A model generated the notes under the pieces. It did no database searches. It worked only from the letters and a program-made list of their open reading frames with translations, and was not told the origin of the DNA. Source: Minisyncoccota bacterium (GTDB lineage Bacteria; Patescibacteriota; Minisyncoccia; Phycocordibacterales; UBA9973). Taken from it: DNA of 64,000 bases. This document shows positions 3,631 to 59,296 of the stretch, in pieces. The DNA lies in contig JBAYKP010000001.1 of assembly GCA_041664465.1 (NCBI GenBank), forward strand, positions 68,204 to 132,203, written 5' to 3'. A program made the position numbers and the translations under genes. How positions within the stretch are numbered: the stretch's first letter is position 1; each line of letters opens with the position of its first letter.

Positions 3631-4863
3631 TTATGCCACAATACAGCCACCTAGGCAAATGTCGCCATCGTAGACTACGATAGACTGACCTTTATCCACC
3701 AGTACATTTTTATTAAAAGTTATTTCACAGGTCAGACCTGTGCAGACTACTTTGCAATCTAAAAGCTCTCCGTGGTAACGAATTTGAGCAGTATACCCGC
3801 CTTGACTCGTCGGCGAGGCAGGAGCTTTATTTTTTTCTGGTATCTCTAGAATCCAATTTGCCTTACTACATAGGACCGTCCTATGTAGTATACCAGTTGG
3901 ACTGGTATATTCTTCCCCTAGGCAAGGCCTAGGGGAAACTGTAATTGTGTTTTTTTCTATATCTTTTGAAACTACATATAAAGGTTTGCTATTATCTTCA
4001 TTTTTGAAAATTGTAAATCCGTGACGTTCTCCGAGTGTGAAGAATATCGCACCGTCGTGTGAACCTATAACTTTTTCTTTTTTATCCTCTTCTCGGCGAG
4101 CAAGTAATACATCCCCCCTCTTAGTTTCAATATAATGTTTAAGAAAATCTTTCATATCTAAAGGACCTAAGAAGCAGACACCTTGACTGTCCTTCTTCAC
4201 TGCTGTCGGAAGTTTATATTTCTCTGCTAATTTGCGCACTTCTGTCTTCTCTAAATGTCCTACTGGAAATAAAGTATGACTCAAATCATCTTGAGTAAGA
4301 GTCCAAAGAAAATATGATTGGTCTTTAGAGGTATCGGGAGATTTAAGTAGGTAATTCTGAATTTTTTCCTCCCCTGCTAAGGGGAGGTGGCTCCTAGCCG
4401 GAGGGGTCTGACCCCCTCGCCCTTCGGGCACTCCCCCTTGGCAGGGGGAGATTGAATTCACTGCATAATGCCCTGTTGCAATAAAATCTGCTCCACGCTC
4501 TTTTGCAAATTCCCAAAAGACTCCAAACTTCACCATGCGGTTGCACATTACATCTGGGTTTGGAGTGTTCCCCTTTTTGTACTCTTCTATCATATAGTCT
4601 GCCACACCTTTCTTGTAAGCCTCTTCTGCATCACATTCTAAAAATGGTATATCGAGATGTGCACAGACTCGCATTGCATCACGTCTTTCATCCTTCCAAG
4701 TGCACTCTATAAAGTCCGGCGACCACGTACGAATAAAAACCCCAACGACGTTGAATCCTTGATCTTTAAGAAGTGCTGTCGCGACGGAGCTATCCACTCC
4801 ACCCGACACACCCACAAATACAGTTTTATTTATTTTCTTTCCCATCTTGCGAAAATTCCACAA
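3631..4863 (-). CDS. mnmA: tRNA-specific 2-thiouridylase MnmA, enlarged by in-frame palindromic insertions
   Basis: MGKKINKTVFVGVSGGVDSS (PP-loop), FIATGHYA, DQSYFLW, ICLGG. The likely true start is M at 4845. The protein is ~410 aa against ~360 typical, because of the inserts at 4368-4450 and 3866-3935. Confidence 0.9.
   Translation of the reverse strand: MWNFRKMGKKINKTVFVGVSGGVDSSVATALLKDQGFNVVGVFIRTWSPDFIECTWKDERRDAMRVCAHLDIPFLECDAEEAYKKGVADYMIEEYKKGNTPNPDVMCNRMVKFGVFWEFAKERGADFIATGHYAVNSISPCQGGVPEGRGGQTPPARSHLPLAGEEKIQNYLLKSPDTSKDQSYFLWTLTQDDLSHTLFPVGHLEKTEVRKLAEKYKLPTAVKKDSQGVCFLGPLDMKDFLKHYIETKRGDVLLARREEDKKEKVIGSHDGAIFFTLGERHGFTIFKNEDNSKPLYVVSKDIEKNTITVSPRPCLGEEYTSPTGILHRTVLCSKANWILEIPEKNKAPASPTSQGGYTAQIRYHGELLDCKVVCTGLTCEITFNKNVLVDKGQSIVVYDGDICLGGCIVA
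3728..3740. repeat. short palindrome caggtcAgacctg (AGGTC-N-GACCT module) inside mnmA
   Basis: Perfect 6-bp arms. The same module is found at 5355-5410. Confidence 0.4.
3866..3935. repeat. three adjacent GC-rich palindromes inserted in frame in mnmA
   Basis: ctacataggac-c-gtcctatgtag (11-bp arms), taccagt-tgg-actggta, and cccctaggc-aag-gcctagggg (9-bp arms). They encode ...HRTVLCSK...SPRPCLGEE. Confidence 0.7.
4368..4450. repeat. 83-nt composite GC-rich palindromic element inserted in frame in mnmA
   Basis: cctcccc-tgctaa-ggggagg, gagggg-tctgac-cccctc, and ctccccc-ttggca-gggggag hairpins in an otherwise AT-rich gene. It encodes ...PCQGGVPEGRGGQTPPARSHLPLAGEE... between the conserved GHYA and DQSYFL motifs. 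Confidence 0.75.
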
Positions 4864-9018: not shown

Positions 9019-10878
9019 TTACTTTTTGCCGGCTGCTGTCTTGGCCTTAGACCTATCTTGCTCTGTTAGAAGTTTCTTACGTAAACGTACATTTTTAGGA
9101 GTAATTTCTAGAAATTCATCATCAGCCATTATTTCTAATGCTCTTTCGATAGAAAGCCTATATGGAGGTTTGACGTTCACTGCTTCATCCGTTCCGCTTG
9201 AGCGCATATTGGAAAGTTGTTTACCTTTTGTCGGATTCACACTCATTTCATCGCCTTTTGTAACATTACCGATGACCATACCCTCATAGACTTCATCTCC
9301 GTGTTCTACATAAAGTATTCCTCTTTCTTGTAAAGTCCAAAGTGAAAATGCCGCAACTTTACCTGCTACCATTGAGGTCATTGATCCTACATCTCGCTTT
9401 TTTATTTCTCCTGCATAATCTTTAAAGCCGATAAATCTTGAAGCAATAAGTCCTTCACCTTTCGTATCTACGACGAACTGCCCTCTATACCCTAAGAGTC
9501 CACGTGTAGGAATTTCCATAAGCATTCTTACTATTCCTTCTTTCTCATGCATACTTGTGATAAGCCCACGACGAGCTGTAAGCTTCTCTATAACTGCTCC
9601 TGAGACATCACTTCGCACATCTACAGTCACCTCTTCATAAGGTTCAACTTTTCTACCATTTTCTTCTTTTATAATTACGTGAGGTTGAGAAACTTGGAGT
9701 TCATATCCTTCACGACGCATATTCTCAAGTAAGATTGCAATGTGAAGTTCACCTCGTCCGTAAACTAGGTAACCTTCTTGTTGTTCTTCTTGATCTGTTC
9801 CATCAAAATTAATTTTAAGTCCAACATTTATTTCAAGTTCTTTCTCAAGACGCTCTCTAATCTGACGACTTGTGACATACTTACCTTCACGTCCACAGAA
9901 TGGTGAATCATTCACTAAAAAGTTTAGAGAAATAGTAGGCTCATCAATAGCAATAGAAGGCAAGATTTCAGTCCCTGGATTATCACAAAGAGTCTCTCCT
10001 ATATATACGTCTGGAATTCCAGCAATAATAGCAATATCTCCAGATGAGATAGACTCAACTTCTTTTCTTTTAATCCCATCGAAAGTAAACATTTTTGAAA
10101 TACGGGCATTGCGTAATGTGCCATCTGTATTCTTCACTATAATAGTAGAGCCTGTCTTCATAGAACCAGTATAGATGCGAACAATAGCAAGACGCCCCAT
10201 GAAGTTGTCATAACCAAGGTTGAAAACTTGTGCTTGGAATGGAGCAGTATCATCAGTCGAAGCTTCCTTCACATCTGAGAGGATTAGATCAAGCAATGGA
10301 GTTAAGTCTTTGGAATCATCTCCTAGTTTTAAGAATGCTTTACCCTCTCTACCAATAGCATAAATAGTTTTGAAATCTATTTGCTCCTCTGTTGCTCCAA
10401 GCTCTAAGAATAATTCAAGAACTTCTTCGTGAACACGGTCAGGATTAGCAGCTTGTTTATCTATTTTATTTATGACAACGATTGGTTTTAATCCAAGCTC
10501 TAAAGACTTCTTAAGAACGAATCTAGTCTGAGGCATTGGACCTTCTTGTGCATCTACAAGGAGGAGCACGGAGTCAATAGCACGAAGAACGCGCTCAACT
10601 TCCGAGCCGAAATCCGCGTGACCTGGAGTATCTACGATGTTTATCTTTGTACCTTTATAATTTACCGAAGTATTCTTAGAATAAATAGTAATACCACGCT
10701 CAAGTTCAAGGGCATTTGAGTCCATAGTGACGCCTTCTTCTACCATCCCGCATTGCTTCATAAGTTGGTCTGTCAAAGTTGTTTTCCCATGATCCACGTG
10801 GGCGATTATAGCTATATTGCGGATTTCTGTTGTTTTCATAAAATAAAATCGCCAAAAGGCGTTTAGATATATTAGCAA
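9019..10878 (-). CDS. typA: translational GTPase TypA/BipA
   Basis: IRNIAIIAHVDHGKTTLTDQL (G1), DTPGHADF (G3), NKIDK (G4) and an EF-G-like domain architecture. Likely start is MKTTEIRN at 10839. Confidence 0.9.
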   Translation of the reverse strand: MLIYLNAFWRFYFMKTTEIRNIAIIAHVDHGKTTLTDQLMKQCGMVEEGVTMDSNALELERGITIYSKNTSVNYKGTKINIVDTPGHADFGSEVERVLRAIDSVLLLVDAQEGPMPQTRFVLKKSLELGLKPIVVINKIDKQAANPDRVHEEVLELFLELGATEEQIDFKTIYAIGREGKAFLKLGDDSKDLTPLLDLILSDVKEASTDDTAPFQAQVFNLGYDNFMGRLAIVRIYTGSMKTGSTIIVKNTDGTLRNARISKMFTFDGIKRKEVESISSGDIAIIAGIPDVYIGETLCDNPGTEILPSIAIDEPTISLNFLVNDSPFCGREGKYVTSRQIRERLEKELEINVGLKINFDGTDQEEQQEGYLVYGRGELHIAILLENMRREGYELQVSQPHVIIKEENGRKVEPYEEVTVDVRSDVSGAVIEKLTARRGLITSMHEKEGIVRMLMEIPTRGLLGYRGQFVVDTKGEGLIASRFIGFKDYAGEIKKRDVGSMTSMVAGKVAAFSLWTLQERGILYVEHGDEVYEGMVIGNVTKGDEMSVNPTKGKQLSNMRSSGTDEAVNVKPPYRLSIERALEIMADDEFLEITPKNVRLRKKLLTEQDRSKAKTAAGKK

Positions 10879-13431: not shown

Positions 13432-14552
13432 TATTGTACCTCAAATGGGAAATATTCGGAAAGCTCGCCTGAATAATAGAATTCATAAGAAAGACCTCCG
13501 AAAGTATAATCTCTATCACTAATAGTAATAGTGGAGCCTCCAACTTCTGGATTCTCTTTTGGTATTGATTTATTGAACCCTAAATTGAATAAAGTAGCGA
13601 GAACTTCTGGACGATCGTTGATAAGGAAGCCTGCCGTCTCCCACTGATGCATTATTTCCTTTAAAAATACAGCCGTATACATATAAGAATAATAATGATT
13701 CTTATCATCTGCTAATCTATTCATCAATTCTGTATCAGGATTGGCATCTCCATAATTAAAAATATTTTCATAATTAGCCCCTAGATAAAATGGACTTTGG
13801 CTATCTTTCAAATTACTTTCAATAATTTTAGCCGTTTCAAATTTAACACCTGCTACTCCATAAGAAAATTTCGTACCATTACCGAGAACTTTCAATGGTT
13901 CAAAATATTTCTTGAATGATTCACGATTGGCCGTAAAGAATCTAAATTGCTCCGAGATAACAGTCGAGACTATGATTCTAGAAGGTACACCCGAGTCCTT
14001 ACTTGCTTGCAGTATCACATCTTTATCTTTCACCAAAGCATCTCTTAAGGTCATCCACTCAGGAGAAGACATCCAAGAGAAAATACTCTGAGCCGAAGGA
14101 TTGTCCCCTAAAGAAAATATATTCTGTCCAATGCTATCACAACTAGCCACTTTATCTTTTAAGAATGAATTATTATTCTCGGTGACAAGTAGAATTGCAT
14201 TTATCATTTTCTCGGCTACGATTTGCGACTTGGTTGTGATGTATGCATCTAGTATCCTCTCGCCATTCTCTGGCAAGATAGAAGTAATCGTCATAACTTT
14301 GCATTCTACTCTAGGGTCTAATTTGTTGAAATTGGTGGCTGTCGTAGTTTTTTTAAAAATTGGCAAAATCGCCTCCTTTTTACTGGCATTATTGAAAAAG
14401 GCATTACGAGAATCAATACTACCTTTCACATCTGTCAGGTGAAGTCGCATAGCTACAAAAACACCAGAAAAAACTATTCCCAAAAGAGCAAAGCCACACA
14501 CAATAACAATTAATATTATTTTTAATGTCTTTTTATTTTTTATAAATTTCAT
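13431..14552 (-). CDS. hypothetical membrane-anchored extracytoplasmic protein
   Basis: An N-terminal TM segment (ILIVIVCGFALLGIVFSGVFVA), then a ~340-aa domain with no recognised motifs. It lies between holB and mreB. Confidence 0.4.
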   Translation of the reverse strand: MKFIKNKKTLKIILIVIVCGFALLGIVFSGVFVAMRLHLTDVKGSIDSRNAFFNNASKKEAILPIFKKTTTATNFNKLDPRVECKVMTITSILPENGERILDAYITTKSQIVAEKMINAILLVTENNNSFLKDKVASCDSIGQNIFSLGDNPSAQSIFSWMSSPEWMTLRDALVKDKDVILQASKDSGVPSRIIVSTVISEQFRFFTANRESFKKYFEPLKVLGNGTKFSYGVAGVKFETAKIIESNLKDSQSPFYLGANYENIFNYGDANPDTELMNRLADDKNHYYSYMYTAVFLKEIMHQWETAGFLINDRPEVLATLFNLGFNKSIPKENPEVGGSTITISDRDYTFGGLSYEFYYSGELSEYFPFEVQ

Positions 14553-19620: not shown

Positions 19621-20805
19621 ATGCCTAAAATAAACCCAGACATAGAATCATTCGCTAGAATTAAGGTTATCGGTATTGGTGGTTCAGGGAAAAATGCCCT
19701 CAATCATATGATAGCCTCAAAAGTAAAAGGAGTGGAATTCATAGTTATGAATACTGATACTCAGGATTTGCATAACTCACTCGCTGAAAAGAAGGTCCAC
19801 CTTGGTAAAAATTTAACTAAAGGTCTCGGAGCTGGAATGAATCCAGAAATTGGAAAGCGTGCCGCCGAAGAAACAAAAGCTGAGATTCAAGATGTTATCA
19901 AAGGAGCTGATATGGTATTTATCGCTTGCGGTATGGGAGGAGGTACTGGTACAGGAGCTGCTCCTATCGTCGCTCAAGCTGCCAAAGAGCAAGGAATTCT
20001 TACTGTCGCCGTTGTCACTAAACCATTTTCATTTGAAGGAAATCAAAGAATGAAGATAGCCGAAGCTGGACTCTCCGAGCTTGAACGTGAAGTTGATGCA
20101 ATTCTTGTAATTCCAAATGATAGACTTATAGTTATTTCTGGTAAAGATGTCGGATTCAGACAAGCCTTCGAACTTTGTGATGAAGTGTTGAAGCAAGCCG
20201 TAGAAGGTATCTCTGAACTTATCACCACCCCTGGAATGATCAACGTAGACTTCGCAGATATCAAAGCTGTAATGTCCGATGCAGGAAGTGCTCTTATGGG
20301 AGTAGGAATTGCCGCTGGAGAAGGTAGAGCTGAGAAGGCTGCCTTACAAGCTATCAATTCCCCACTTCTAGATCTTTCTATTTCTGGAGCAAAAGGAGTT
20401 CTCTTTGCTATCTCAGGAGGAGATGATCTCACTATCCACGAAATCCAAGAAGCCGCTAAGATAATCACTGAGTCTATCGATAAAGAAGCCAAAGTAATAT
20501 TTGGAACTATTAGCGACGACAAGCTCAAGAAAGGCGAAATGAAAGTGACAGTCATCGCGACTGGCTTCCCTACTGATATGCCGAAGCGTTCACTATTCCA
20601 GATTCATCAAAAGGCCAATGAGCCAACAGTAAATTCTTCTACCAAAGAAGAGATTCTACAAGCGGTCAATGGTAAAGATTCTTCTTCTGATTACATCAAG
20701 AAAAATGATAAAGATAAAACAGAAAAAGCAGAAGATGATCTATTCATAGATGATACTGATGATTGGAGTACAGTGCCTGCGTTTTTGAGAAGAAATAAGA
20801 AATAG
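19621..20805 (+). CDS. ftsZ: cell division GTPase FtsZ
   Basis: GIGGSGKNA, the GGGTGTGAAP tubulin signature, and NVDFAD. Confidence 0.95.
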   Translation: MPKINPDIESFARIKVIGIGGSGKNALNHMIASKVKGVEFIVMNTDTQDLHNSLAEKKVHLGKNLTKGLGAGMNPEIGKRAAEETKAEIQDVIKGADMVFIACGMGGGTGTGAAPIVAQAAKEQGILTVAVVTKPFSFEGNQRMKIAEAGLSELEREVDAILVIPNDRLIVISGKDVGFRQAFELCDEVLKQAVEGISELITTPGMINVDFADIKAVMSDAGSALMGVGIAAGEGRAEKAALQAINSPLLDLSISGAKGVLFAISGGDDLTIHEIQEAAKIITESIDKEAKVIFGTISDDKLKKGEMKVTVIATGFPTDMPKRSLFQIHQKANEPTVNSSTKEEILQAVNGKDSSSDYIKKNDKDKTEKAEDDLFIDDTDDWSTVPAFLRRNKK

Positions 20806-38911: not shown

Positions 38912-38936
38912 CCTAGCAAGAACGGTTCTTGCTAGG
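38912..38936. repeat. REP palindrome cctagcaagaac-G-gttcttgctagg (12-bp arms), followed by two half-copies that overlap the 3' end of the RAYT gene
   Basis: Perfect palindrome. Half-repeats ttcttgctagg run to ~38975. Confidence 0.75.
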
Positions 38937-38955
38937 TTCTTGCTAGGTTTTCTTG

Positions 38956-39636
38956 CTAGGTTTGAGGTTCTAGGGTTTCAAAATAATTTTCAACAAATTC
39001 CTTAAAAGATTGTTTATTATGAAAATAATCTGGAAAATTATCTTTATTTAAAATACTATTTTCTATTCTATCATCTCCTGTATAATCTTGATAACTAGAA
39101 TATTTATATGATTCTAAAAAGTTCTTCATATCTACTGATGACTTATTCAAATTATCTTCCCACTCAGGAAATTCTATCTCTAATGAATTAAGATGAATAT
39201 ATGCAAATAATTGTCTTAAATAATTATCATCATTCCCTACTAATTTAGCTTTAAATAATCCTCCAAATAATGCTCCTTTTCTTTGATATTTTATATTAAA
39301 AAACATTGAATATCCTACTCCTAATTTTCTCATAAATTTAGTTATACCACCATCAACATCTTGTCTAACTAATATGTGAAAGTGATTGTTCATCAAACAC
39401 CACGCACCAATAGAGATAATACTCTTTTCTTTTTTGATTTTTAAAATATCATAGTATTTTTTATTTTGATTATTTACAAGATTATCAATCCGAAAAGATT
39501 CTTCAGAGTTTGCGAGATAAAGAAGCATAATAAATCTTTCATAATCTCCTTTGATTTTAAAAATTACTCTCTTATCAATACCCCTATTATAAATATGGTA
39601 ATATTCTCCTGTTATAAATGGATCTTTCCTTAACAT
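38956..39636 (-). CDS. IS200/IS605-family Y1 (HUH) transposase, REP-associated tyrosine transposase (RAYT)-like
   Basis: GEYYHIYNRG..., LMNNHFHILV (HUH motif) and ...QLFAYIHLNSL (candidate catalytic Tyr). It is flanked on both sides by the same 25-bp REP. Confidence 0.6.
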   Translation of the reverse strand: MLRKDPFITGEYYHIYNRGIDKRVIFKIKGDYERFIMLLYLANSEESFRIDNLVNNQNKKYYDILKIKKEKSIISIGAWCLMNNHFHILVRQDVDGGITKFMRKLGVGYSMFFNIKYQRKGALFGGLFKAKLVGNDDNYLRQLFAYIHLNSLEIEFPEWEDNLNKSSVDMKNFLESYKYSSYQDYTGDDRIENSILNKDNFPDYFHNKQSFKEFVENYFETLEPQT

Positions 39637-39662
39637 AATTATATTATATCAATTTCAAACGC

Positions 39663-39687
39663 ACCTAGCAAGAACGGTTCTTGCTAG
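39663..39687. repeat. REP palindrome copy (same orientation as 38912) plus a half-copy
   Basis: cctagcaagaacggttcttgctagg, followed by tagttcttgctagg. Confidence 0.75.
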
Positions 39688-39716
39688 GTAGTTCTTGCTA
39701 GGTTCTATAAAATATA

Positions 39717-40295
39717 TTACTTCCTTTTTATAAAACCCCAAAAAATTGTTATTATGCCAAAAATAAATGGAATTAAAGCTACCTTATAATTATTTGAATT
39801 AAAAAATGAAATAACCCCTGCTATAATTAAAAATATACCGAAAAGTAAATTGTAATAAAAATAAAATTCTTTAGGATTTGATTTATCAAAATTTATCCCA
39901 ACCCCTTTAAGAATTGTAAATATTAATGGATTTTGTATTGCAATAACCTTTTCTGTAAAAGTATTATCATTTCTTCTATTATAACTAATAAAACCAGCTA
40001 CTAAAAACACAAAAAGAAGCATTGGTATAGTATAAAGAAAAACAGGAAGCATTTCTTTTAATCCAGATAATCCACTTGTTAAAAGCATCACGATGACAAC
40101 AAATAAAATTATTAACAAGAATATAGATATACCTGTTTTAAATATTTCCTTTATTTTTGTTTTTGTTTTTTTATCTACTTCATTAATAAATTCAACTGGA
40201 ACTACTTCTTGAACAGATTCACTAGTTATAATTTTCTCTGAAACATTATTCACATTTTGTTCTTGATTCATAAATAAATTATACCACATGGTCAA
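39717..40295 (-). CDS. hypothetical polytopic membrane protein
   Basis: 192 aa with four predicted TM helices. It lies between REP copies 39663 and 40351. Confidence 0.4.
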   Translation of the reverse strand: MTMWYNLFMNQEQNVNNVSEKIITSESVQEVVPVEFINEVDKKTKTKIKEIFKTGISIFLLIILFVVIVMLLTSGLSGLKEMLPVFLYTIPMLLFVFLVAGFISYNRRNDNTFTEKVIAIQNPLIFTILKGVGINFDKSNPKEFYFYYNLLFGIFLIIAGVISFFNSNNYKVALIPFIFGIITIFWGFIKRK

Positions 40296-40350
40296 GTAAT
40301 ATTGCGAATAGTCTCACGAAATATCAAAAGGTGATATCGTGATATCGAAA

Positions 40351-40375
40351 CCTAGCAAGAACCGTTCTTGCTAGG
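40351..40375. repeat. REP palindrome copy in inverted orientation (central C)
   Basis: cctagcaagaac-C-gttcttgctagg, preceded by the direct repeat gtgatatcgtgatatcg. Confidence 0.7.
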
Positions 40376-40404: not shown

Positions 40405-41280
40405 ATGAATACAGAGAAAAAGAATCTAAAATTTATATTCTTTGGGACACCCTATGCCGCAAGTAAGACATTGCAAATACTTAAAGAAAGAGGATATATA
40501 CCAGAAGTGATTGTGACCTCTCCCGATGCAAAAAAGGGGCGTGGCTTGGAAATGCACGAAACGTCAGTATCAACTTGGGCTAAGGAGAATAATATAAAAT
40601 GCTTAAAGCCTGAAAAAATTGATGAAGAATTTATAAATAATATTTTCCCTAGCCACAAGTCCGACTTGTGGCCGATACTTTCTGTAGTTGTGGCTTATGG
40701 GAAAATACTCCCAGAAATACTAATCAAAAAGCCTGAATTTGGAACTATAAATGTTCATTATTCCCTTCTTCCAAAATACAGAGGTGCATCTCCTCTTGAG
40801 GCTTGCCTATTAAATGGAGATGAAGTTACTGGGGTAAGTATTCAGCAGATGGAATATAAATTAGACAGTGGGCAAATATTACGAGAAGAGAAAATAGATA
40901 TAGGTATAAATGATACTAAAGAAGAATTACGTGAGACTCTCATAAGTCTAGGAGGAAATGTCTTATGTGATATTTTACCCCAAATAGTAAACCAAGAAAT
41001 TAAATCAAAAGCTCAAGATGAGAATCTAGCGACCTTCTGTAAGAAAATTAAAAAAGAAGATGGGGAAATCAATCTAGAAGAAAATGCTAAAGAGAATTGG
41101 AATAAATACAGAGCTTACTCTGGCTGGCCTGGGGTATTCTTCTTTGCAACTAAACATAATAAAAAGATAAGGTGCAAAATAACCAAAGCTAAATTAGAAA
41201 ATAATCAATTTATTATTGAAAAAATAATACCGGAAAGTAAAAAGGAGATAGATTATGAATCTTTCTTAAAACAAAATTAG
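40405..41280 (+). CDS. fmt: methionyl-tRNA formyltransferase
   Basis: KFIFFGTPYAA, VVVAYGKILP, INVHYSLLPKYRGASPL. It carries a 21-bp palindrome (40653-40673) in frame (...PSHKSDLWPI...). Confidence 0.85.
   Translation: MNTEKKNLKFIFFGTPYAASKTLQILKERGYIPEVIVTSPDAKKGRGLEMHETSVSTWAKENNIKCLKPEKIDEEFINNIFPSHKSDLWPILSVVVAYGKILPEILIKKPEFGTINVHYSLLPKYRGASPLEACLLNGDEVTGVSIQQMEYKLDSGQILREEKIDIGINDTKEELRETLISLGGNVLCDILPQIVNQEIKSKAQDENLATFCKKIKKEDGEINLEENAKENWNKYRAYSGWPGVFFFATKHNKKIRCKITKAKLENNQFIIEKIIPESKKEIDYESFLKQN
40653..40673. repeat. palindrome gccacaagtc-c-gacttgtggc in frame inside fmt
   Basis: 10-bp arms. A near-identical element (gccataagtccgacttatggc) lies inside rnhB. Confidence 0.65.
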
Positions 41281-50256: not shown

Positions 50257-50414
50257 TATAGTCTATATAAAAAGAAAAAGCTCCCGGTATGGGCGCACCC
50301 ATACAGGGATCTCTTTCATAATGATATCAGTATTATATCATATTGCCGAAAGTATGCAAGTATTTTATTTAGGTTCGAACTTCTACCAAAGCAGGGAAAA
50401 TAGATCTTAAATTA

Positions 50415-50438
50415 CCTAACAAGAACCGTTCTTGCTAT
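50415..50438. repeat. degenerate REP copy (cctaacaagaac-c-gttcttgctat)
   Basis: Two mismatches relative to the 38912 REP. It is intergenic, next to the R-M/MazG block. Confidence 0.5.
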
Positions 50439-50444
50439 ATTTAA

Positions 50445-50840
50445 TTAGTTTTGATTATTATTTTCTAACTTTTTTATCTTTTTGAATTTATACCACCCAA
50501 TAATTACTGGTAAGACAAAAGTTAAAATATAATAAATATAAACATCGATTTTATAATAACCAGTTACTTTAAGTACTTTAATCATGAAAATATAATCCAA
50601 AGCCACTGCCATAATAGCCCAAATAACCCCTAATCCGATATAACACCCAAATTCTTCTCTTTTAATTTTCTTAAGCAACACCCAAAGAGTAAACGCTATT
50701 CCGAAAGGCATAATGCTCCAGCCTATAAATTCTTTTGGCACAAAAGCAAAAAATACAAATCCTAAAACATAGCCAAAAAGCCAAACAATAAATCCCCAAA
50801 AAACAGTATTAAGAAAAATTTTCCCTTTATTTGTTTCCAT
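50445..50840 (-). CDS. hypothetical four-TM membrane protein
   Basis: Hydrophobic profile only. Confidence 0.35.
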   Translation of the reverse strand: METNKGKIFLNTVFWGFIVWLFGYVLGFVFFAFVPKEFIGWSIMPFGIAFTLWVLLKKIKREEFGCYIGLGVIWAIMAVALDYIFMIKVLKVTGYYKIDVYIYYILTFVLPVIIGWYKFKKIKKLENNNQN

Positions 50841-50843
50841 AAA

Positions 50844-51092
50844 TTAATATCTATATTTATAAGGCTTCACCGTTCCTTTCTTCCCTGAATAAGGATTATA
50901 ATTCCCTTTTGTAGAATAGTTATCTAACTTGGTTTTATTTGGAGAAGTTCGGTAAGAAGGTGCTACATATTTCATAGTGGAAGGTTTAAAATAACCTTTT
51001 ACTTTAACAGTCTTGGCTTCTACAGATGAGACAGATACAAACAACCCTAATAATAGAAACCCTAGAATACTTAAAACTGCAAGTTTTTTCAT
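50844..51092 (-). CDS. small secreted K/Y-rich protein
   Basis: Signal peptide MKKLAVLSILGFLLLGLFVSVSSVEA, then a Lys/Tyr-rich 55-aa tail. Confidence 0.35.
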   Translation of the reverse strand: MKKLAVLSILGFLLLGLFVSVSSVEAKTVKVKGYFKPSTMKYVAPSYRTSPNKTKLDNYSTKGNYNPYSGKKGTVKPYKYRY

Positions 51093-51152
51093 ACAATATT
51101 TGAAGTGATTATTAATATCCTAATCATATGCCTATTTATGGATAAATCAAGG

Positions 51153-51866
51153 CTAAATACTTTTTATTGAATGAATAACCTTATCCATAAAATTATCATA
51201 GTCATTTAATATAATTCCATCTCCAAAAGTCACGAGTGATTTTTTTGATAATTTTAATTCAATACTATTTTTAATACTTAAATAATATTTCTTATATTGA
51301 GATTTTTTTATTATTTTATCTTTTATTAGATCCGGAAATTTAATCATAAATATTAATGTTTTTGTGGGCGTATGGAAAAATACATCTTCATCGTCTTGTG
51401 ATAATTTAAAATACTTATGGATATTATTGTCCGTAATTTTTTCCCACTTTGTGATCATACCCTTATTGTTATAATAAGGTAATTCTTCTGGTAAAACTAA
51501 AATCTGATAATATTTTTTCTTATTAGCTCTTATATTTGCTGTTTCTCCTAACATATTTTCAAAATAATTATTTGAATTTTGAGAATAATTATTCATGACA
51601 AATTTAACAGCAACTCCGGCAAGATCTTTTTTGTCTTTAAAAATAGTAATATCTACTGTCTTGTCCATATATCTACCTTCCATTTTAGCTTCTTTCCCCT
51701 TCCCCAAACCAAGGGAACTGACAGTGTATTTATTCCCAAGTCTTTTTTCTAAATCTTTCGCAATTGCCCCATGAAGTATTTTTAACTTTTCATTACTTCG
51801 TGAATGTGTTTGTAAAAATTTTACAAATGATTGACTTACTATTTTCAAAAATTTTTGATTATTCAT
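51153..51866 (-). CDS. putative type II restriction endonuclease (partner of the adjacent methyltransferase)
   Basis: It lies immediately downstream of, and is co-oriented with, the N6A MTase, 23 nt apart. The candidate PD-(D/E)xK-like segment MDKTVDITIFKDKK gives no family-level match. Confidence 0.35.
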   Translation of the reverse strand: MNNQKFLKIVSQSFVKFLQTHSRSNEKLKILHGAIAKDLEKRLGNKYTVSSLGLGKGKEAKMEGRYMDKTVDITIFKDKKDLAGVAVKFVMNNYSQNSNNYFENMLGETANIRANKKKYYQILVLPEELPYYNNKGMITKWEKITDNNIHKYFKLSQDDEDVFFHTPTKTLIFMIKFPDLIKDKIIKKSQYKKYYLSIKNSIELKLSKKSLVTFGDGIILNDYDNFMDKVIHSIKSI

Positions 51867-51889
51867 TTTTATGATTATTATATTAATTA

Positions 51890-53356
51890 TTAAAATAAAG
51901 ATGGCTGAACTTTATAAAATTGAGGATGAACAAAATCTTTCATGAAACTTTTAGCATATGATTTATATCCACCACGATAACTTTTGGAAATTGAATTTAT
52001 ATACTCTTCCATTGAATTTGAATTTAACACTTCGCAAAGGGCATATAGATCAACATCTTTATTTTTTGGTTTTATACAATAACCAGAATAAAAACTTGTT
52101 TTTTCGTCTTCTATTACAAAAAAGTGAGGAGTGAGATTCATTGTACTAGTTATTATTTTTTTACCAAAACCAGTTTTTAAACTTTGGTTTCTTCCAAAAG
52201 AATAAAATTCTTCATAATTTTTACCACCACCCTTGTCTCTTTTTTCTAAAATATCACGATTATATAAAAAATATTTATATGCTTCTGGATATTTATTTAT
52301 AAAAATATTTTTAGGAATTATTCTTTCATTTTTATACGGAAAAATCAAAAAAAGATTCTGATTTTTCCCTTTATAAGTAGATGCTTTAATAATTGGAACA
52401 CACAAATTTCTCTCTATTTTAAAATTATCTTTATAAAAATATATTTTATCTATTTTTTCAGGAGAAAATATATAAACATCATCTTTTAATGTAGCAATTC
52501 CATAATGGATGTCCGCTATTTCTTGAAGTGTTGAATATTTTTTATTTAATTTATCTATTTTTTTAGAATATTCTTCACTTAAAAATTGCCATGGTTTTAA
52601 CTTATCTTCTATATTTTTCAATATCTTTTTATAAACAATATCATTAAAATTATTTTTATAGTTCTCTGTATATAAAAAATTATGGGTATTTTCTTTATTT
52701 AAAAATGTTATGGCGGTGTAAGTTGTTGCGTCTTTAAATACCTGAAAGTGATCAAAATTAATGATTTTTGTTAAATGTGGATAAATTAAATTTCTTAAAT
52801 TTCTCCCAGCACTAGAGTGAAAATGAGAGTTAGGTGTAATAAAAGAAAGTTTCCCGTTTTCTGTTAATAAATTCAGAGACTGCTCAAAAAAACAAAAATA
52901 TAAATCAATGGAGCCATTAGATGCTGATATAAACTTCTTTTGTATTTCATCTCTTTTTTCATTAAGATTTTGTATTCTCACATATGGAGGATTACCTATT
53001 ATAAAATTAAATTTCTCTTTAAAATCATGAAAACAAAAATCATTAATAATTGAGTTATATTGGGTAATTTCTTCATTAGATAATTCTTGTAAATTTTGTT
53101 TTGTTTTGTTTATATATTCTTCTGAAATGTCAATAAAATAAAGATTGTTTTCAATTACATCTTTTATTGATTTTCCAGATATTTTAGAAAATTTCTTAAC
53201 TATTGGAATAGAAAAAGCACCTTCTCCACATCCAGAATCTAATATTTTTTCTGATCCTGTTATTTTTGTATCTTTAAATACTTCATCAATCATAAAATCA
53301 ACTATCCATTCCGGAGTAAAAACAACGCCATTTTCTTTTTTAGATTTAACATTCAT
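51890..53356 (-). CDS. N6-adenine DNA methyltransferase (gamma-class; TaqI/Eco57I-like)
   Basis: GVVFTPEWIVDFM (motif X), LDSGCGEGAF (motif I FxGxG) and IIGNPPY (motif IV) in gamma-class order. A C-terminal target-recognition region. Confidence 0.8.
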   Translation of the reverse strand: MNVKSKKENGVVFTPEWIVDFMIDEVFKDTKITGSEKILDSGCGEGAFSIPIVKKFSKISGKSIKDVIENNLYFIDISEEYINKTKQNLQELSNEEITQYNSIINDFCFHDFKEKFNFIIGNPPYVRIQNLNEKRDEIQKKFISASNGSIDLYFCFFEQSLNLLTENGKLSFITPNSHFHSSAGRNLRNLIYPHLTKIINFDHFQVFKDATTYTAITFLNKENTHNFLYTENYKNNFNDIVYKKILKNIEDKLKPWQFLSEEYSKKIDKLNKKYSTLQEIADIHYGIATLKDDVYIFSPEKIDKIYFYKDNFKIERNLCVPIIKASTYKGKNQNLFLIFPYKNERIIPKNIFINKYPEAYKYFLYNRDILEKRDKGGGKNYEEFYSFGRNQSLKTGFGKKIITSTMNLTPHFFVIEDEKTSFYSGYCIKPKNKDVDLYALCEVLNSNSMEEYINSISKSYRGGYKSYAKSFMKDFVHPQFYKVQPSLF

Positions 53357-53398
53357 ATTAATATATTATATCATTTTATACATACAAACTATAATTTT

Positions 53399-53785
53399 TT
53401 ATAGTTTATTATATTTCGTATGCTTTCCTTTGGCTTTCTTTACTGGGTATTTTTCTTCGTTTTTCTTCATTTTTTTATCTAATGCGTCTATAATATCTAT
53501 CTTCAAATCATGGCTCATAAGTAAAACCCAATAGAAGACGTCTGCCAGCTCTTCCCCAATATGCTCTTTGTGTGACTTTATATATTCTTCAATTTCTTCT
53601 TTTGATTTCCATTGAAAATGCTCCAGAACTTCAGAAGCCTCAAGTGAAAGAGAAATTGCTAAGTCTTTTGCATTATGAAATTGCTTCCATTTTCTAGCAT
53701 TTCGGAAAGCTAGTATCTTCTGTATTGATTCACTCAAATCTCCTTTCATAATTTGAAGTATAGCTCTATTTCCCTTTTGAGACAA
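53399..53785 (-). CDS. MazG-like nucleotide pyrophosphohydrolase
   Basis: FRNARKWKQFHNAKDLAISLSLEASEVLEHFQW and EELADVFYWVL. This is the EExxE/D metal-binding helix pattern of the MazG/NTP-PPase family. Confidence 0.65.
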   Translation of the reverse strand: MSQKGNRAILQIMKGDLSESIQKILAFRNARKWKQFHNAKDLAISLSLEASEVLEHFQWKSKEEIEEYIKSHKEHIGEELADVFYWVLLMSHDLKIDIIDALDKKMKKNEEKYPVKKAKGKHTKYNKL

Positions 53786-53882
53786 TATGGGGGATTTTTG
53801 GGATAAGTATTAAAGTAATATACCTTTTGCTTTTTTAGTCTATTTTTGCTACTATATTCTAGTCTATTATTAATAGACGTAT

Positions 53883-53954
53883 TCCGTGGTAGCTCAGCGG
53901 TAGAGCGGTCGCCTGTTAAGCGATTGGTCGTAGGTTCGATCCCTACCCACGGAG
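53883..53954 (+). tRNA. tRNA-Asn (anticodon GTT)
   Basis: TCCGTGGTAGCTCAGCGGTAGAGCGGTCGCCTGTTAAGCGATTGGTCGTAGGTTCGATCCCTACCCACGGAG. Cloverleaf with anticodon loop CTGTTAA. The antisense ORF 53746-53961 (VGIEPTT) is a tRNA artefact. Confidence 0.85.
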
Positions 53955-55883: not shown

Positions 55884-58538
55884 ATGATAACGAAATTGAA
55901 AAATAACAAAAAGAGAGTTCGCCTAGAGGACTATATCTCCCCTGTTAGCTACAATCTGACCTTACATCCTGACCTTTTGTCTTCTACTTTTTCGGGACGC
56001 GAAATTATAAAAATAAAAGTGGATAAAGAAATAAAACAAATCACTTTGCATAGTAAAGATATAGATATAGAAACGGTAGAGCACATAGCAGATGGCACGC
56101 AACAATTTGCCCATAAAATCACATACGATGCAAAGAGAGAAACTGCAACTTTCTATTTTAAAAATAAAATAAAAAAAGGGCAGAGCGAGCTCTCAATTAT
56201 TTTCAGTGGTATCATCAATGATAATTTGAGAGGATTTTATAAAAGTAGATACATACTAGATGGTGAAGAGAAATTCATAGCCACGACCCAGTTCGAAGCA
56301 ACAGATGCTCGCCGTGCTTTCCCTTGCTTTGATGAGCCAGCACACAAAGCAATATTTGAAGTATCGCTCGTAATACCTGAGAATCACACAGCCATATCAA
56401 ATACTTTACCTATTGAAATAAAGGAGCACAGTCTCGGATACAACATAGTATCTTTCTCTCCCACGCCGATAATGTCTACTTACCTACTCGCATTTATTAT
56501 CGGCGAGTTTGAATATGTGGAGGGATATACCCGTCCGAACGGGTCATCCGGGCAGGCTAAGGACAAGGTTCTTGTCCGTGTATTCACAACTTCTGGTAAA
56601 AAGCATCAAGCCAAATTTGCATTGGAAGTCGCTATCAAATCACTTGAATTTTATAATGAATATTTTGATATACCCTATCCACTTCCTACCTTAGACCTCA
56701 TCGCTATCCCCGACTTCGAAAGTGCGGCAATGGAGAACTGGGGGGCCATCACTTTCCGCGAGACGGCTATACTCGTTGATGATCTACATACTTCCCTTTC
56801 AAACAAACAATGGGCAGCGATAGTGATAGCCCACGAATTGGCACATCAGTGGTTCGGCAATCTAGTGACGATGCATTGGTGGACAGACCTCTGGCTCAAT
56901 GAAGGCTTTGCTTCATATATGGAAAATTTATGTACGGATCACCTCTTTCCAGACTGGCATGTATGGGATTTAAATATTGCCGATAGATATGCTGTCGCTC
57001 TCAAGCTTGATTCACTTGCCACTTCACATCCAATAGAAGTAGTCGTCCACCACCCAGATGAAATAAGTGAAATCTTTGATATGGTCTCTTATGCTAAAGG
57101 CTCTGCGATGATAAAAATGCTGGCAGAATATCTAGGGCACGACAAATTCCGCGATGGGCTACGTCACTATTTGAAAAAGCACAGTTATGGTAATACCAAT
57201 ACCGTAGATCTCTGGAATGCTTTTGAGAAAGTAAGCAAAAAGAAAGTAATAGAAATAATGAATTCTTGGACGAAAGAAACCGGCTATCCACTCGTGACAA
57301 TTTCCCCTAGGCAAGGCCTAGGGGAAATGTGGGAAATCAGACAAGAGCGATTTTTCTCAAGTAGAGTGAAAGCTTCTGAATATAAAAATTCAAAAAGTAA
57401 AAAACACTTGTGGCAAATACCTGTGAAATACGAAAGCCTGTCGGATAATAGAGAAGTTATGGATATGCTCATGACTAAAAAATCTGCTCCAATGATTGGC
57501 ACCTCTATCGGCAAAGTAAACAAAGAAGAAGGAACATTTATACGAGTCTGCTATGATCAAGAGACTCTTAAAAAATTGAAAGAAGAAATACAAAATGGGA
57601 AACTTTCTGTGAAAGATAGACTGGGAGTTATTCGTGATATGTTCGCTCTGGCTGAAGGTGGATACATCAGTACGATAGAAGTACTTGAATTCTCTCTCGT
57701 ATATAAAAATGAAACAGAGTTCATCGTCTGGTCTGAAATAGCGAGTGGTATAAATAGAGTGGCAAATATATTGGGCGAAGAAAAATTTAAAAATCTATAC
57801 GATAAATACGTACTCACATTATTTAGTCACATCGCAAAAGAATTGGGGTGGGGAGAAACCCCCTCGCCCTCTGGGCACTCCCCCTTAACAGGGGGAGACA
57901 AACACTCACAAGTTTTCTTGCGGAGTCTAGCACTCTCTATGTCGGCACATTATGGAGACAAGAAAGTAATTACCGAAGCCAAAAAACTCTTTAAAAATAA
58001 GGCTAAAATGCCAATAAGAGCTGACATCCGCGGAGTAGTCTACAACATTGTGGCTGCAAGTGGCGGGGAGAAGGAATGGAAACTTTTCGAAAAGTTATAC
58101 AAAGAAGAAGAATTTCATGAAGAGAAGGATAGATATGCTAGGGCATTAACTTCATTTAAAAATAAAGATCTACTTCGGAAAACTTTAAACTTTGCTATAT
58201 CAAGAGACGTTCGTGTTCAAGACGCTCCATTCATAATAGTGGCCGTCTGGCAGAATAGTATAGGTAAAGACATTACTTGGAAGTTTATAAAAAGTAATTG
58301 GAAAATAATTGTGAAAAAGTTTGGCGAGGGTGGACATTTCCTCTCCCGAGTCCTCTCTCCTCTCGGTACTCATACAAAAGAAAAAGATTACAAAGACATT
58401 AAAAATTTCTTTGCTAAAAATGTCGCCCCTGGCTCTGCCCGCACCCTCCTCCAATCCTACGAACGCATCGAGTCCAACATCGCTTGGCTCAAAGATGACA
58501 AAGCCTCTATCAAATCTTGGCTAACAAAAAATTACTAG
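55884..58538 (+). CDS. pepN: aminopeptidase N (M1 family)
   Basis: GAMENWG, the HELAHQWFGNLVTMHWW zincin motif, and LWLNEGFASY. It carries in-frame palindromic inserts at 57304-57324 and 57845-57897. Confidence 0.9.
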   Translation: MITKLKNNKKRVRLEDYISPVSYNLTLHPDLLSSTFSGREIIKIKVDKEIKQITLHSKDIDIETVEHIADGTQQFAHKITYDAKRETATFYFKNKIKKGQSELSIIFSGIINDNLRGFYKSRYILDGEEKFIATTQFEATDARRAFPCFDEPAHKAIFEVSLVIPENHTAISNTLPIEIKEHSLGYNIVSFSPTPIMSTYLLAFIIGEFEYVEGYTRPNGSSGQAKDKVLVRVFTTSGKKHQAKFALEVAIKSLEFYNEYFDIPYPLPTLDLIAIPDFESAAMENWGAITFRETAILVDDLHTSLSNKQWAAIVIAHELAHQWFGNLVTMHWWTDLWLNEGFASYMENLCTDHLFPDWHVWDLNIADRYAVALKLDSLATSHPIEVVVHHPDEISEIFDMVSYAKGSAMIKMLAEYLGHDKFRDGLRHYLKKHSYGNTNTVDLWNAFEKVSKKKVIEIMNSWTKETGYPLVTISPRQGLGEMWEIRQERFFSSRVKASEYKNSKSKKHLWQIPVKYESLSDNREVMDMLMTKKSAPMIGTSIGKVNKEEGTFIRVCYDQETLKKLKEEIQNGKLSVKDRLGVIRDMFALAEGGYISTIEVLEFSLVYKNETEFIVWSEIASGINRVANILGEEKFKNLYDKYVLTLFSHIAKELGWGETPSPSGHSPLTGGDKHSQVFLRSLALSMSAHYGDKKVITEAKKLFKNKAKMPIRADIRGVVYNIVAASGGEKEWKLFEKLYKEEEFHEEKDRYARALTSFKNKDLLRKTLNFAISRDVRVQDAPFIIVAVWQNSIGKDITWKFIKSNWKIIVKKFGEGGHFLSRVLSPLGTHTKEKDYKDIKNFFAKNVAPGSARTLLQSYERIESNIAWLKDDKASIKSWLTKNY
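57304..57324. repeat. palindrome cccctaggc-aag-gcctagggg in frame in pepN (the same element is found in mnmA at 3915-3935)
   Basis: Identical 21-mer to the mnmA copy. Here it encodes SPRQGLGEM. Confidence 0.7.
57845..57897. repeat. GC-rich composite palindromic element in frame in pepN (same family as mnmA 4368-4450)
   Basis: ggggtggggagaaaccccctcgccctctgggcactccccc-ttaaca-gggggag shares ccccctcgccct.cgggcactccccctt..cagggggag with the mnmA element. It encodes GWGETPSPSGHSPLTGGD. Confidence 0.7.
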
Positions 58539-58570: not shown

Positions 58571-59296
58571 TTAGTGTATAAATGACTTGCGATGGATTGG
58601 GGTCTGACCGTGAGTTCTGATGGCAGAATAGTGAGCGCGGGTACCATAACCCATATGCTTATTGAAACCGTATTCGGGGTAATCCAAAGCATACTTTGTC
58701 ATAATCCTATCTCGCGAAACTTTCGCCACAATGGATGCCAAAGAAATAACCGGATGAAGCTCATCCCCTCTTATAATCGTCTCCTGATTTATGTACTCTA
58801 CTGGGGCATGAAGTCCACCATCGAGAAAAATCTTGAACGAAGAGAGCGAAACAGAATCTTCCAAATTTTTATCGGCGTCGGAGCCCTTTAGGGTAAGCCC
58901 TGAAAAATTTGGAAGATTCTGTGAAGCGACTTTATCAAGTGACTGATTCAAAGCTTTCTGAATACATTTTGCAATTCCAAATTTATCAATATTCTCGGGG
59001 GAAACAAAAGACACAGCATAGTCGCAAAGACCTTCGGTCTTTGCGACTTTCAAATATTCAAACCACTCTTCCCTTTGCTTCTTACTAAGCTTCTTCGAAT
59101 CTTTTAATTTTGGTAATTTTACATAGGACGGTCCTATGTCTTTTTTGCCATAAGTCCGACTTATGGCTGATTCAATAAAATTATTATCCTTAATTAAAAA
59201 AGCACAAACAGCCACTGGCCCTGCCAAAGGGCCCCGACCAACCTCATCTATGCCAATTATGTATTTTGTGGTGTCTAAAGCTCCCATATAGAACAA
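58571..59296 (-). CDS. rnhB: ribonuclease HII
   Basis: IIGIDEVGRGPLAGPVAVCA (DEVGRG catalytic motif). It carries two in-frame palindromes at 59121-59167. Confidence 0.85.
   Translation of the reverse strand: MFYMGALDTTKYIIGIDEVGRGPLAGPVAVCAFLIKDNNFIESAISRTYGKKDIGPSYVKLPKLKDSKKLSKKQREEWFEYLKVAKTEGLCDYAVSFVSPENIDKFGIAKCIQKALNQSLDKVASQNLPNFSGLTLKGSDADKNLEDSVSLSSFKIFLDGGLHAPVEYINQETIIRGDELHPVISLASIVAKVSRDRIMTKYALDYPEYGFNKHMGYGTRAHYSAIRTHGQTPIHRKSFIH
59121..59167. repeat. two palindromes (acataggac-g-gtcctatgt and gccataagtc-c-gacttatggc) in frame in rnhB
   Basis: They are related to the mnmA element ctacataggaccgtcctatgtag and the fmt element gccacaagtccgacttgtggc. They encode ...RTYGKKDIGPSYVKLPK.... 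Confidence 0.7.

Follow-up and report, generated by a model that had tools for sequence, protein, structure and literature searches.

Does the segment at positions 38912-40375 of the DNA analysed here hold a system of the kind that repetitive extragenic palindromes (REPs) form elsewhere with their associated tyrosine transposases (RAYTs)? The window, by which we mean the whole stretch of 64,000 nucleotides (64 kb), comes from a 133-kb contig in a metagenome-assembled genome of Candidatus Paceibacterota (Parcubacteria, candidate phyla radiation, CPR), and our statements on palindromes and solo copies in the source genome cover this window only. The segment carries a gene for an HUH-type Y1 enzyme, annotated on the source contig as plain 'transposase', between 25-nt palindromes, and the initial annotation of the sequence took it for the canonical REP/RAYT arrangement. 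To our knowledge, nearly all characterised REP/RAYT systems are from Proteobacteria with large genomes. The CPR (Patescibacteria) is a major uncultured radiation of bacteria with small, streamlined genomes, and our literature search returned no paper tying RAYT, TnpAREP or REP to this group. The answer that we favour, with moderate confidence, is that the locus is a REPtron-like module, that is, a chromosomally maintained gene for a class-2 Y1 HUH single-stranded DNA (ssDNA) endonuclease/transferase together with its cognate hairpin. The gene order is def, the Y1 gene, a small membrane-protein open reading frame (ORF) and then fmt, with the following features.

38912-38936: REP1, exact 25-nt palindrome that follows the def stop codon directly and lies downstream of Y1; -14.6 kcal/mol, z -6.5
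38937-38960: two tandem half-copies of TTCTTGCTAGG (38937 and 38950), which on the sense strand are left-arm copies 5' of REP1
38956-39636, minus strand: Y1 HUH gene, TnpAREP-like class 2, 226 amino acids (aa), with HuH residues H85/H87, catalytic tyrosine Y146 and tail residues S180 and S181
39643-39671, minus strand: promoter-like site TTGCTA-17-TATAAT with an extended -10 TG, its -35 lying inside the REP2 arm
39664-39688: REP2, exact 25-nt palindrome on the upstream side of Y1, 28 nt from its start codon
39692-39702: half-copy that reads as a left arm 5' of REP2 in the sense direction
39717-40295, minus strand: cargo ORF for a predicted membrane protein between REP2 and REP3, with no Pfam family above cutoff
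40351-40375: REP3, exact 25-nt palindrome whose centre base is the opposite one, lying 30 nt before fmt
50415-50439: degenerate solo copy with 3 mismatches and a weak hairpin (-3.7 kcal/mol), at the edge of a low-GC accessory island

The palindromes are far beyond chance expectation, which was taken from 100 dinucleotide-preserving shuffles of the window. We scanned with our own script, since AT-rich near-palindromes overwhelmed the output of the built-in inverted-repeat finder. The exact pattern CCTAGCAAGAAC-S-GTTCTTGCTAGG occurs three times, with centre G in REP1 and REP2 and centre C in REP3, where the shuffles expect 0.00, and the same expectation holds for the degenerate fourth copy. The two copies bracketing the Y1 gene are exact matches to CCTAGCAAGAAC-N-GTTCTTGCTAGG. 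The 11-nt arm TTCTTGCTAGG occurs 11 times with at most one mismatch (1.3 expected; shuffle maximum 5), and this count takes in the three extra tandem half-copies at 38937, 38950 and 39692, of which that at 38950 overlaps the Y1 ORF at its stop codon and the codons just before it. The flanking, third and degenerate copies and the half-copies described in the initial annotation were thus all recovered. Folded as ssDNA, the palindromes reach -12 to -15 kcal/mol (z -5 to -6.5), the degenerate copy being the weak exception. An Rfam scan of the window placed no known RNA family at the hairpins and found four tRNAs only. The reading of the centre base as a mark of inversion needs correction. REP3 does have C in place of G on the plus strand, but among relatives the centre is C, G, A or T and is flipped in some close relatives, so it is unreliable for orientation. 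Because the Y1 gene is encoded on the minus strand, each of its two flanking copies reads with centre C in the sense direction.

The enzyme itself was correctly recognised as HUH-Y1. The ORF contains YHIYNRG, NHFHIL and AYIHLNS and matches Pfam Y1_Tnp (PF01797) with 34.8 bits against a cutoff of 23 (E 2e-8); no DnaA_C/HTH distal domain was found in the Pfam scan. In an alignment of 76 family members H85, H87, G121 and Y146 are invariant, N150 and the C-terminal tail residues S180 and S181 are at least 90% conserved, and the consensus reads YHxYNRG, NHFH and YIHLNP, the window protein having Ser (YIHLNS) in place of the last Pro. Sequence comparison with the PDB was marginal: a single-sequence phmmer search gave nothing relevant, and the family profile reached E 0.016 for ISDra2 TnpA and E 0.043 for 4ER8. 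Because of this the classification rests on the predicted fold. The AlphaFold (AF2) model has a pLDDT of 94.3 and a pTM of 0.91, and its best Foldseek match in the PDB is 4ER8_A, the E. coli TnpAREP bound to a REP hairpin (E 8.6e-5, root-mean-square deviation 3.8 Å, 187 columns), with the TnpA proteins of IS608 and ISDra2 ranking behind. The family motif Y---NP assigns this HUH-Y1 enzyme to class 2, the TnpAREP-like one, and not to the IS200 class with Y---Q. Within class 2, motif comparison with Table 1 of Quentin points to subclass 2.1 (group 1 of Bertels) rather than to the E. coli subclass 2.2, as judged from NHFH, F for W in LF(x)G, YIHLNP, a length of ~230 aa and the Ser-bearing tail. 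Such a placement is consistent with the missed NCBIfam equivalog for RAYTs (NF047646, REP_Tyr_transpos), for which the protein scores 24.9 bits against a cutoff of 80.

The family is large. The protein has 2,936 word-indexed homologues, the best 120 of which are all 69-93% identical to it, and the named sources among these 120 are Parcubacteria, Nomurabacteria, Zambryskibacteria and Minisyncoccia. Searched exhaustively, the cluster representatives (50% identity) yielded 13,164 clusters at E <= 1e-3 and 219 at E <= 1e-30, with matches over the full length.

Evidence for a cognate hairpin comes from the relatives. For the window's own family, here family A, we fetched loci of up to 20 kb around Y1 relatives with 68-92% amino-acid identity. 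The gene is bracketed on both sides by a palindrome of the same core in 11 of 11 loci, those from 10 other genomes behaving like the window, and the gene-plus-cognate-palindrome arrangement proposed for this locus thus recurs in every relative examined. On the sense strand the downstream hairpin begins 2-25 nt past the stop codon, and the upstream one is separated from the ATG by 31-36 nt that include a TATAAT box (7 loci). When the 20 flanking copies are aligned, the inner 6 bp AAGAAC/GTTCTT are essentially invariant, and the outer stem is lineage-variable yet complementary: 91.8% of cells are paired, compared with 34-46% when the partner column is slid, and compensatory double changes are found in 8 of 14 pairs, the observed values being reached by none of 500 shuffles. 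Symmetry that is held at positions free in sequence argues for intra-strand pairing, that is, for a hairpin and not a duplex operator. Moreover, the 25-mer is identical across genomes whose Y1 genes share just ~72% DNA identity, and again in a syntenic relative, where DNA identity across the neighbourhood is 76%. The feet of the hairpins differ by lineage (CCTAG, CTCG, TTTCG, TGCG, ACTGC), with no GTAG or GTGG among them.

A second Y1 family, 35% identical to the first and with 2,397 matches, shows the same flanked architecture in five of five loci with a hairpin of its own. Its core is TCAACAC-CGA-GTGTTGA, the asymmetric CGA loop standing on the sense strand in 10 of 10 copies, and the proteins have the motifs NHFH, LFQGPYK, YIHRNP and WSSY. 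Two subfamilies have two hairpin tips; protein subfamily and tip therefore co-vary, as cognate recognition predicts.

In line with the initial annotation, the palindromes are not confined to the Y1 locus. Besides the degenerate copy at 50415, solo copies were found in eight stretches of relatives (L011-L014, L016, L024, L027 and L028), the solo-copy stretches being 1-8 kb each with no Y1 gene within the stretch. Some copies fall inside ORFs (L015:986 and L015:1607); in the 479-aa ORF of L015 the internal copy could not be shown to be an insertion. The copies are singlets, with no REPIN-like doublets. The half-copies beside the Y1-flanking hairpins are one-sided: 10 of 10 repeat the left arm and lie 5' on the sense strand, the other three configurations being absent, and they are truncated at the palindrome centre or within ~2 nt of it. 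The centre base on the sense strand is C in 17 of 22 copies. Half-copies and centre bias may record one-strand events at the tip of the hairpin, either breaking and rejoining or a switch of template. As for GC skew, a single weak data point on which we do not rely, it is mostly negative on the plus strand without a switch across the window, and by it the Y1 sense strand would be the lagging-strand template.

DNA next to the gene appears to be exchanged in units bounded by the hairpins. Between REP2 and REP3 the window has the order fmt-REP-[transmembrane ORF]-REP-Y1, where the relative L019, with a 92% identical Y1 protein and the same fmt-REP3 junction, has fmt-REP-[DUF2188+DUF8370]-REP-Y1; L015 and L017 have further unrelated hairpin-bounded ORFs beside Y1. 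The cargo ORF of the window encodes 192 aa from a TTG start; the gene call on the source contig gives 184 aa. We considered that the slot might hold a conserved partner gene and rejected this, the cargo ORFs being unrelated.

We infer that the Y1 protein binds, cleaves and mobilises the hairpin and regulates its own gene. In the mechanism that we propose, the enzyme would recognise the single-stranded hairpin, mainly via the invariant sense-strand tip AAGAAC-N-GTTCTT, and would cleave and rejoin DNA at or near it. Occasional copying of the hairpin to new sites would give rise to solo copies, some within ORFs, and the processing would leave strand-asymmetric partial duplications and allow hairpin-bounded DNA beside the gene to be swapped. 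The arm of the upstream flank would act as the -35 element and likely autoregulatory operator of a near-leaderless promoter, and the downstream flank as a terminator-like hairpin. The site TTGCTA-17-TATAAT is indeed the best promoter-like site of the locus, as a consensus match only; its -10 box ends 7 nt before the Y1 ATG, and the Y1 mRNA would thus be leaderless or nearly so. This match and the conserved spacing suggest autoregulation through binding of the hairpin or its arm. The REP3 arm likewise offers a TTGCTA -35-like hexamer 16 nt before TATACT upstream of fmt (again a consensus match only), and REP1 is predicted to be a terminator-like hairpin on the minus strand, that of the gene.

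Several observations weigh against the REPtron-like reading. Exact 25-mers turned up in 7 stretches from 4 species-representative genomes, at 1-3 copies per genome, and in 9 stretches of the whole JGI metagenome collection, and the 64-kb window contains no intact solo copy, only the degenerate one; hairpin 'dissemination' thus looks feeble beside that of real REPs. The palindrome lacks the 5' GT[AG]G foot of REPtrons, and the E. coli GTAG-contact residues W94 and Q95 are unconserved, aligning to F and to a variable residue in this Y1 family. The epithet 'canonical' in the initial annotation must therefore be dropped, given the missing foot, the missed RAYT equivalog, motifs of a subclass reported as REP-less and the handful of copies seen per genome. 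Arm-to-arm copying, not selection, could also keep the hairpins symmetric. Gene context is wholly different in more distant genomes. Between the window and the syntenic relative L018 the synonymous divergence (dS) of Y1 is 0.57, compared with 1.5-2.4 in its neighbours. Finally, the segment 38912-40375 has a GC content of 26.0%, in contrast to 35.4% for the window, which puts it in the lowest 3% of windows of the same size, and GC at third codon positions is 15-16% in the hairpin-bounded segment and 27-31% in neighbouring genes. Low GC and low dS fit a recent exchange or mobility of the whole cassette at least as well as long-term domestication.

The last three of these observations are also what would be expected if the locus were an autonomous minimal insertion sequence (IS) of the IS200/IS605 type, with the hairpins as left and right ends, movement of the unit via a single-stranded circle and solo copies as decayed or abortive ends. 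The two hairpins beside the gene point the same way on its top strand, as in IS608 and ISDra2, two Y1 genes are present in some genomes, and assemblies break at the hairpins. Still, we hold this explanation to be unlikely. The protein has Y---N(P/S) and not the Y---Q of IS200 TnpA, 226 aa with a conserved tail in place of ~150 aa, and a RAYT, not an IS transposase, as its best fold match. Neither tnpB nor a duplicate of the Y1 gene was found in the window or in any 20-kb locus; each locus has a single Y1 gene of a given subfamily, we saw no near-identical duplicate, and paralogues in the same genome are divergent (35% identical) with distinct hairpins. Position is retained: the def-hisS synteny is kept at 76% DNA identity, and the paralogue family keeps its neighbours in three genomes (Grx/DivIC-LepA context). 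The gene is under purifying selection, with a ratio of nonsynonymous to synonymous divergence (dN/dS) of 0.089 between the window and L018 and an amino-acid identity of 89% (def 70%, hisS 84%). Complete hairpins stand alone, unlike the left-end plus right-end pairs of elements resembling miniature inverted-repeat transposable elements. An exact look-up of the def protein returned no contig without the insert, and so no empty-site evidence. In a plasmid and phage search the family was essentially absent, with 3 remote plasmid matches and 1 remote phage match; CPR plasmids are probably scarce in the plasmid collection.

The assembly breaks deserve a note of their own. The contigs of L018 and L019 both end ~50 nt from Y1, at hairpins, which is consistent with the repeat causing short-read assembly breaks in CPR metagenomes.

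According to a second alternative, the palindromes are cis-regulatory only and the Y1 protein serves the host in ssDNA processing, for example at replication forks or on DNA imported by competence pili, with no mobilisation and with the solo copies as regulatory sites or relics. It would account for the -35 hexamers supplied by the arms of REP2 and REP3, the terminator-like REP1, the conserved distance from hairpin to ATG and the strong purifying selection, and it agrees with the non-transposition roles proposed for subclass 2.1 by Quentin 2018 and with the position of Y1 in or beside type IV pilus/competence clusters in L003 and L005/L006. We nevertheless regard it as improbable. Ordinary terminators or operators do not remain unchanged across 25 nt when the genes around them fall to 72-76% identity; copies lie inside ORFs; the half-copies, truncated at the centre and strand-asymmetric, point to breakage and rejoining or slippage at the hairpin; and cargo is swapped exactly between hairpins.

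The clusters just mentioned place Y1 (L003:10001-10675 and L005/L006:10001-10669) inside or beside genes for PilM, PilB/T, PilC, pilins, a prepilin peptidase and a ComF-like phosphoribosyltransferase. The adjacency may be a coincidence or a link to imported single-stranded DNA.

The window contains further palindrome families, namely ACATAGGAC-S-GTCCTATGT, GCCAYAAGTC-S-GACTTRTGGC, CCCCTAGGC-AAG-GCCTAGGGG, TTCCCCTAGGC-AAG-GCCTAGGGGAA and others, which lie in frame within genes and not between them. The housekeeping genes concerned are listed below.

3631-4863, minus strand: MnmA ORF with three tandem palindromes at 3864-3937, in an interdomain linker
40405-41280: fmt ORF with a palindrome at 40652-40672
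55884-58538: M1 aminopeptidase ORF with a palindrome at 57300-57328, in a linker
58571-59296, minus strand: RNase HII ORF with palindromes at 59020, 59121 and 59147 (59020-59167)

Most of the intragenic palindromes sit in interdomain linkers or encode residues that the Pfam profile does not have. In RNase HII the modules AISRTYG (59147) and DIGPSYV (59121) fall exactly in a region of presence and absence among 26 homologues (69-84% identical), relatives carrying none, one or both of them, and the palindrome at 59020 lies in an ungapped conserved region. These intragenic palindromes resemble miniature Rickettsia palindromic elements or intragenic REPs.

The initial annotation proposed that the Y1 enzyme also spreads these families. 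That such a generalist enzyme is at work is very improbable: all families do share perfect arms of 9-13 nt and a centre of 1-3 nt, cognate Y1 hairpins can themselves fall within ORFs and no other candidate enzyme is visible in the window, but each Y1 subfamily has an invariant tip that the other does not share, which speaks for narrow specificity, the tips of the other families are unrelated, with families B and D showing the opposite pattern of a shared base and a variable tip, these families are intragenic where the focal one is intergenic in the window, and their cognate paralogues could lie elsewhere in a genome of which only 64 kb is visible. As to whether additional Y1 paralogues accompany these families, a check that the initial annotation proposed, the window has no second Y1 gene.

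Some side observations concern similar sequences. Alignment columns 159-235 of RNase HII form a second hypervariable region of presence and absence (SQNLPNFSGLTLKGSDADKNLEDSVSL), with sub-modules repeated in some relatives. At residues ~137-170 of MnmA an unusually GC-rich, Pro/Gly-rich stretch, SPCQGGVPEGRGGQTPPARSHLPLAGEE, lies within the HUP domain, where the protein has ~20 residues more than the Pfam profile, and may be another inserted module. In the paralogue family, a perfect cognate hairpin lies inside a Y1 gene (L031:10169-10195), the coding sequence holding its left arm; we rejected it as an insertion, for it overlies the conserved FVQH(S/R)V region without a gap. Just past the downstream paralogue hairpin, a sequence that is tRNA-like by appearance only (gcggaattagtttagtggtagaatgag...) is seen at L009 ~13900-14003 and L030 ~10700-10790. 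In a different CPR genome, two copies of a further palindrome family, ACCCGTCAACCTGGCAGGTTGACGGGT, stand within 700 bp of each other (L031:19313-19345 and 20011-20037), and short palindrome families seem to be common in the CPR group.

A much wider reading would make Y1/hairpin modules a general engine of genome plasticity in the CPR, with subfamily-specific hairpins, slots for cassette swapping, in-frame seeding of palindromes and perhaps ssDNA imported by pili. It draws on the 13,164 clusters, the slots of the window compared with those of L019, L015 and L017, the palindromes in RNase HII, MnmA, Fmt and M1 aminopeptidase, and a methyltransferase island, and we consider it doubtful. The island, at ~50400-53900, is the sole other low-GC stretch of the window (~26%) and holds an Eco57I/TaqI-like DNA methyltransferase (51890-53356) and three ORFs without a Pfam match. 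The degenerate REP at 50415 marks one edge, a tRNA (53883-53954) lies near the other, and an NYN-domain gene stands just outside.

This very large Y1 family is widespread in the CPR, and every member examined has its own hairpin with a fixed tip and a co-varying stem. If the REPtron-like interpretation is true, the REPtron concept reaches both a subclass formerly called REP-less and a major uncultured radiation, and the two subfamilies with their two tips offer a natural 'specificity code' for GTAG-independent DNA recognition by Y1 enzymes. In addition, the repeats may account for repeat-induced assembly breaks in CPR metagenome-assembled genomes, and the hairpin-bounded slots would be sites of accessory-gene turnover in CPR genomes.

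Three known systems invite comparison. The IS200/IS605 elements (TnpA of IS608 and ISDra2) have in common with this locus the Y1 HUH fold, subterminal hairpins that flank the gene in one and the same strand orientation and, in our locus, strand-asymmetric footprints consistent with action on single-stranded DNA. They are set apart by Y---Q in place of Y---N and by a core-only protein of ~150 aa without the conserved tail of the 226-aa protein; in the CPR loci we see no tnpB, no multi-copy identical elements, a vertically retained position and hairpins that are found singly.

Subclass 2.1 (Bertels group 1; the TIRYT/TIRtron of Di Nocera 2013) agrees with our family in NH[YF]H, F(Q) for WQ, Y[IV]HLNP, a length of ~230 aa and a serine tail; its entry in Table 1 reads NH[YF]H, FQ/W[EQ], Y[IV]HLNP, ~238 aa and a conserved-Ser tail (PMC6006769). 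The 16-mer flanking group 1 genes averages 12 occurrences (Bertels), and the repeats seen here are likewise no more than moderately abundant. Some TIRYT flanks have been described as self-complementary (Di Nocera 2013), and GGGGWSAS-type inverted repeats were not apparent by eye in our flanks, no pattern search having been run. For subclass 2.1 as a whole, no REP-like structures near the gene were reported and non-transposition roles were proposed (Quentin 2018, PMC6006769). In contrast, perfect hairpins flank every gene examined here. The family also differs from the subclass in that Pfam finds no distal DnaA_C/HTH domain in the window protein.

Finally, the REPtrons of E. coli (subclass 2.2, group 2) and of Pseudomonas and Stenotrophomonas (subclass 2.5, group 3) share with this locus a Y---NP Y1 HUH enzyme, here with 4ER8 as the best fold match, a gene flanked by its own hairpin, a separate repeat family for each paralogue and solo hairpins elsewhere. 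As in REPtrons, the Y1 gene is low-copy, under purifying selection and locally syntenic, and group 3 REPs are also short perfect palindromes (PMC8266576). The differences, apart from the foot, are a fully symmetric palindrome that occurs as singlets and not as REPIN doublets or bacterial interspersed mosaic elements, a handful of copies seen per genome in place of tens to hundreds, and a 226-aa protein with a different tail, well below the NCBIfam cutoff. The host, too, is a small-genome member of the CPR, while class 2 Y1 genes were found enriched in genomes larger than 5 Mb (Quentin 2018, PMC6006769). Overall, the locus resembles REP/RAYT but is a low-copy, non-canonical variant of it.

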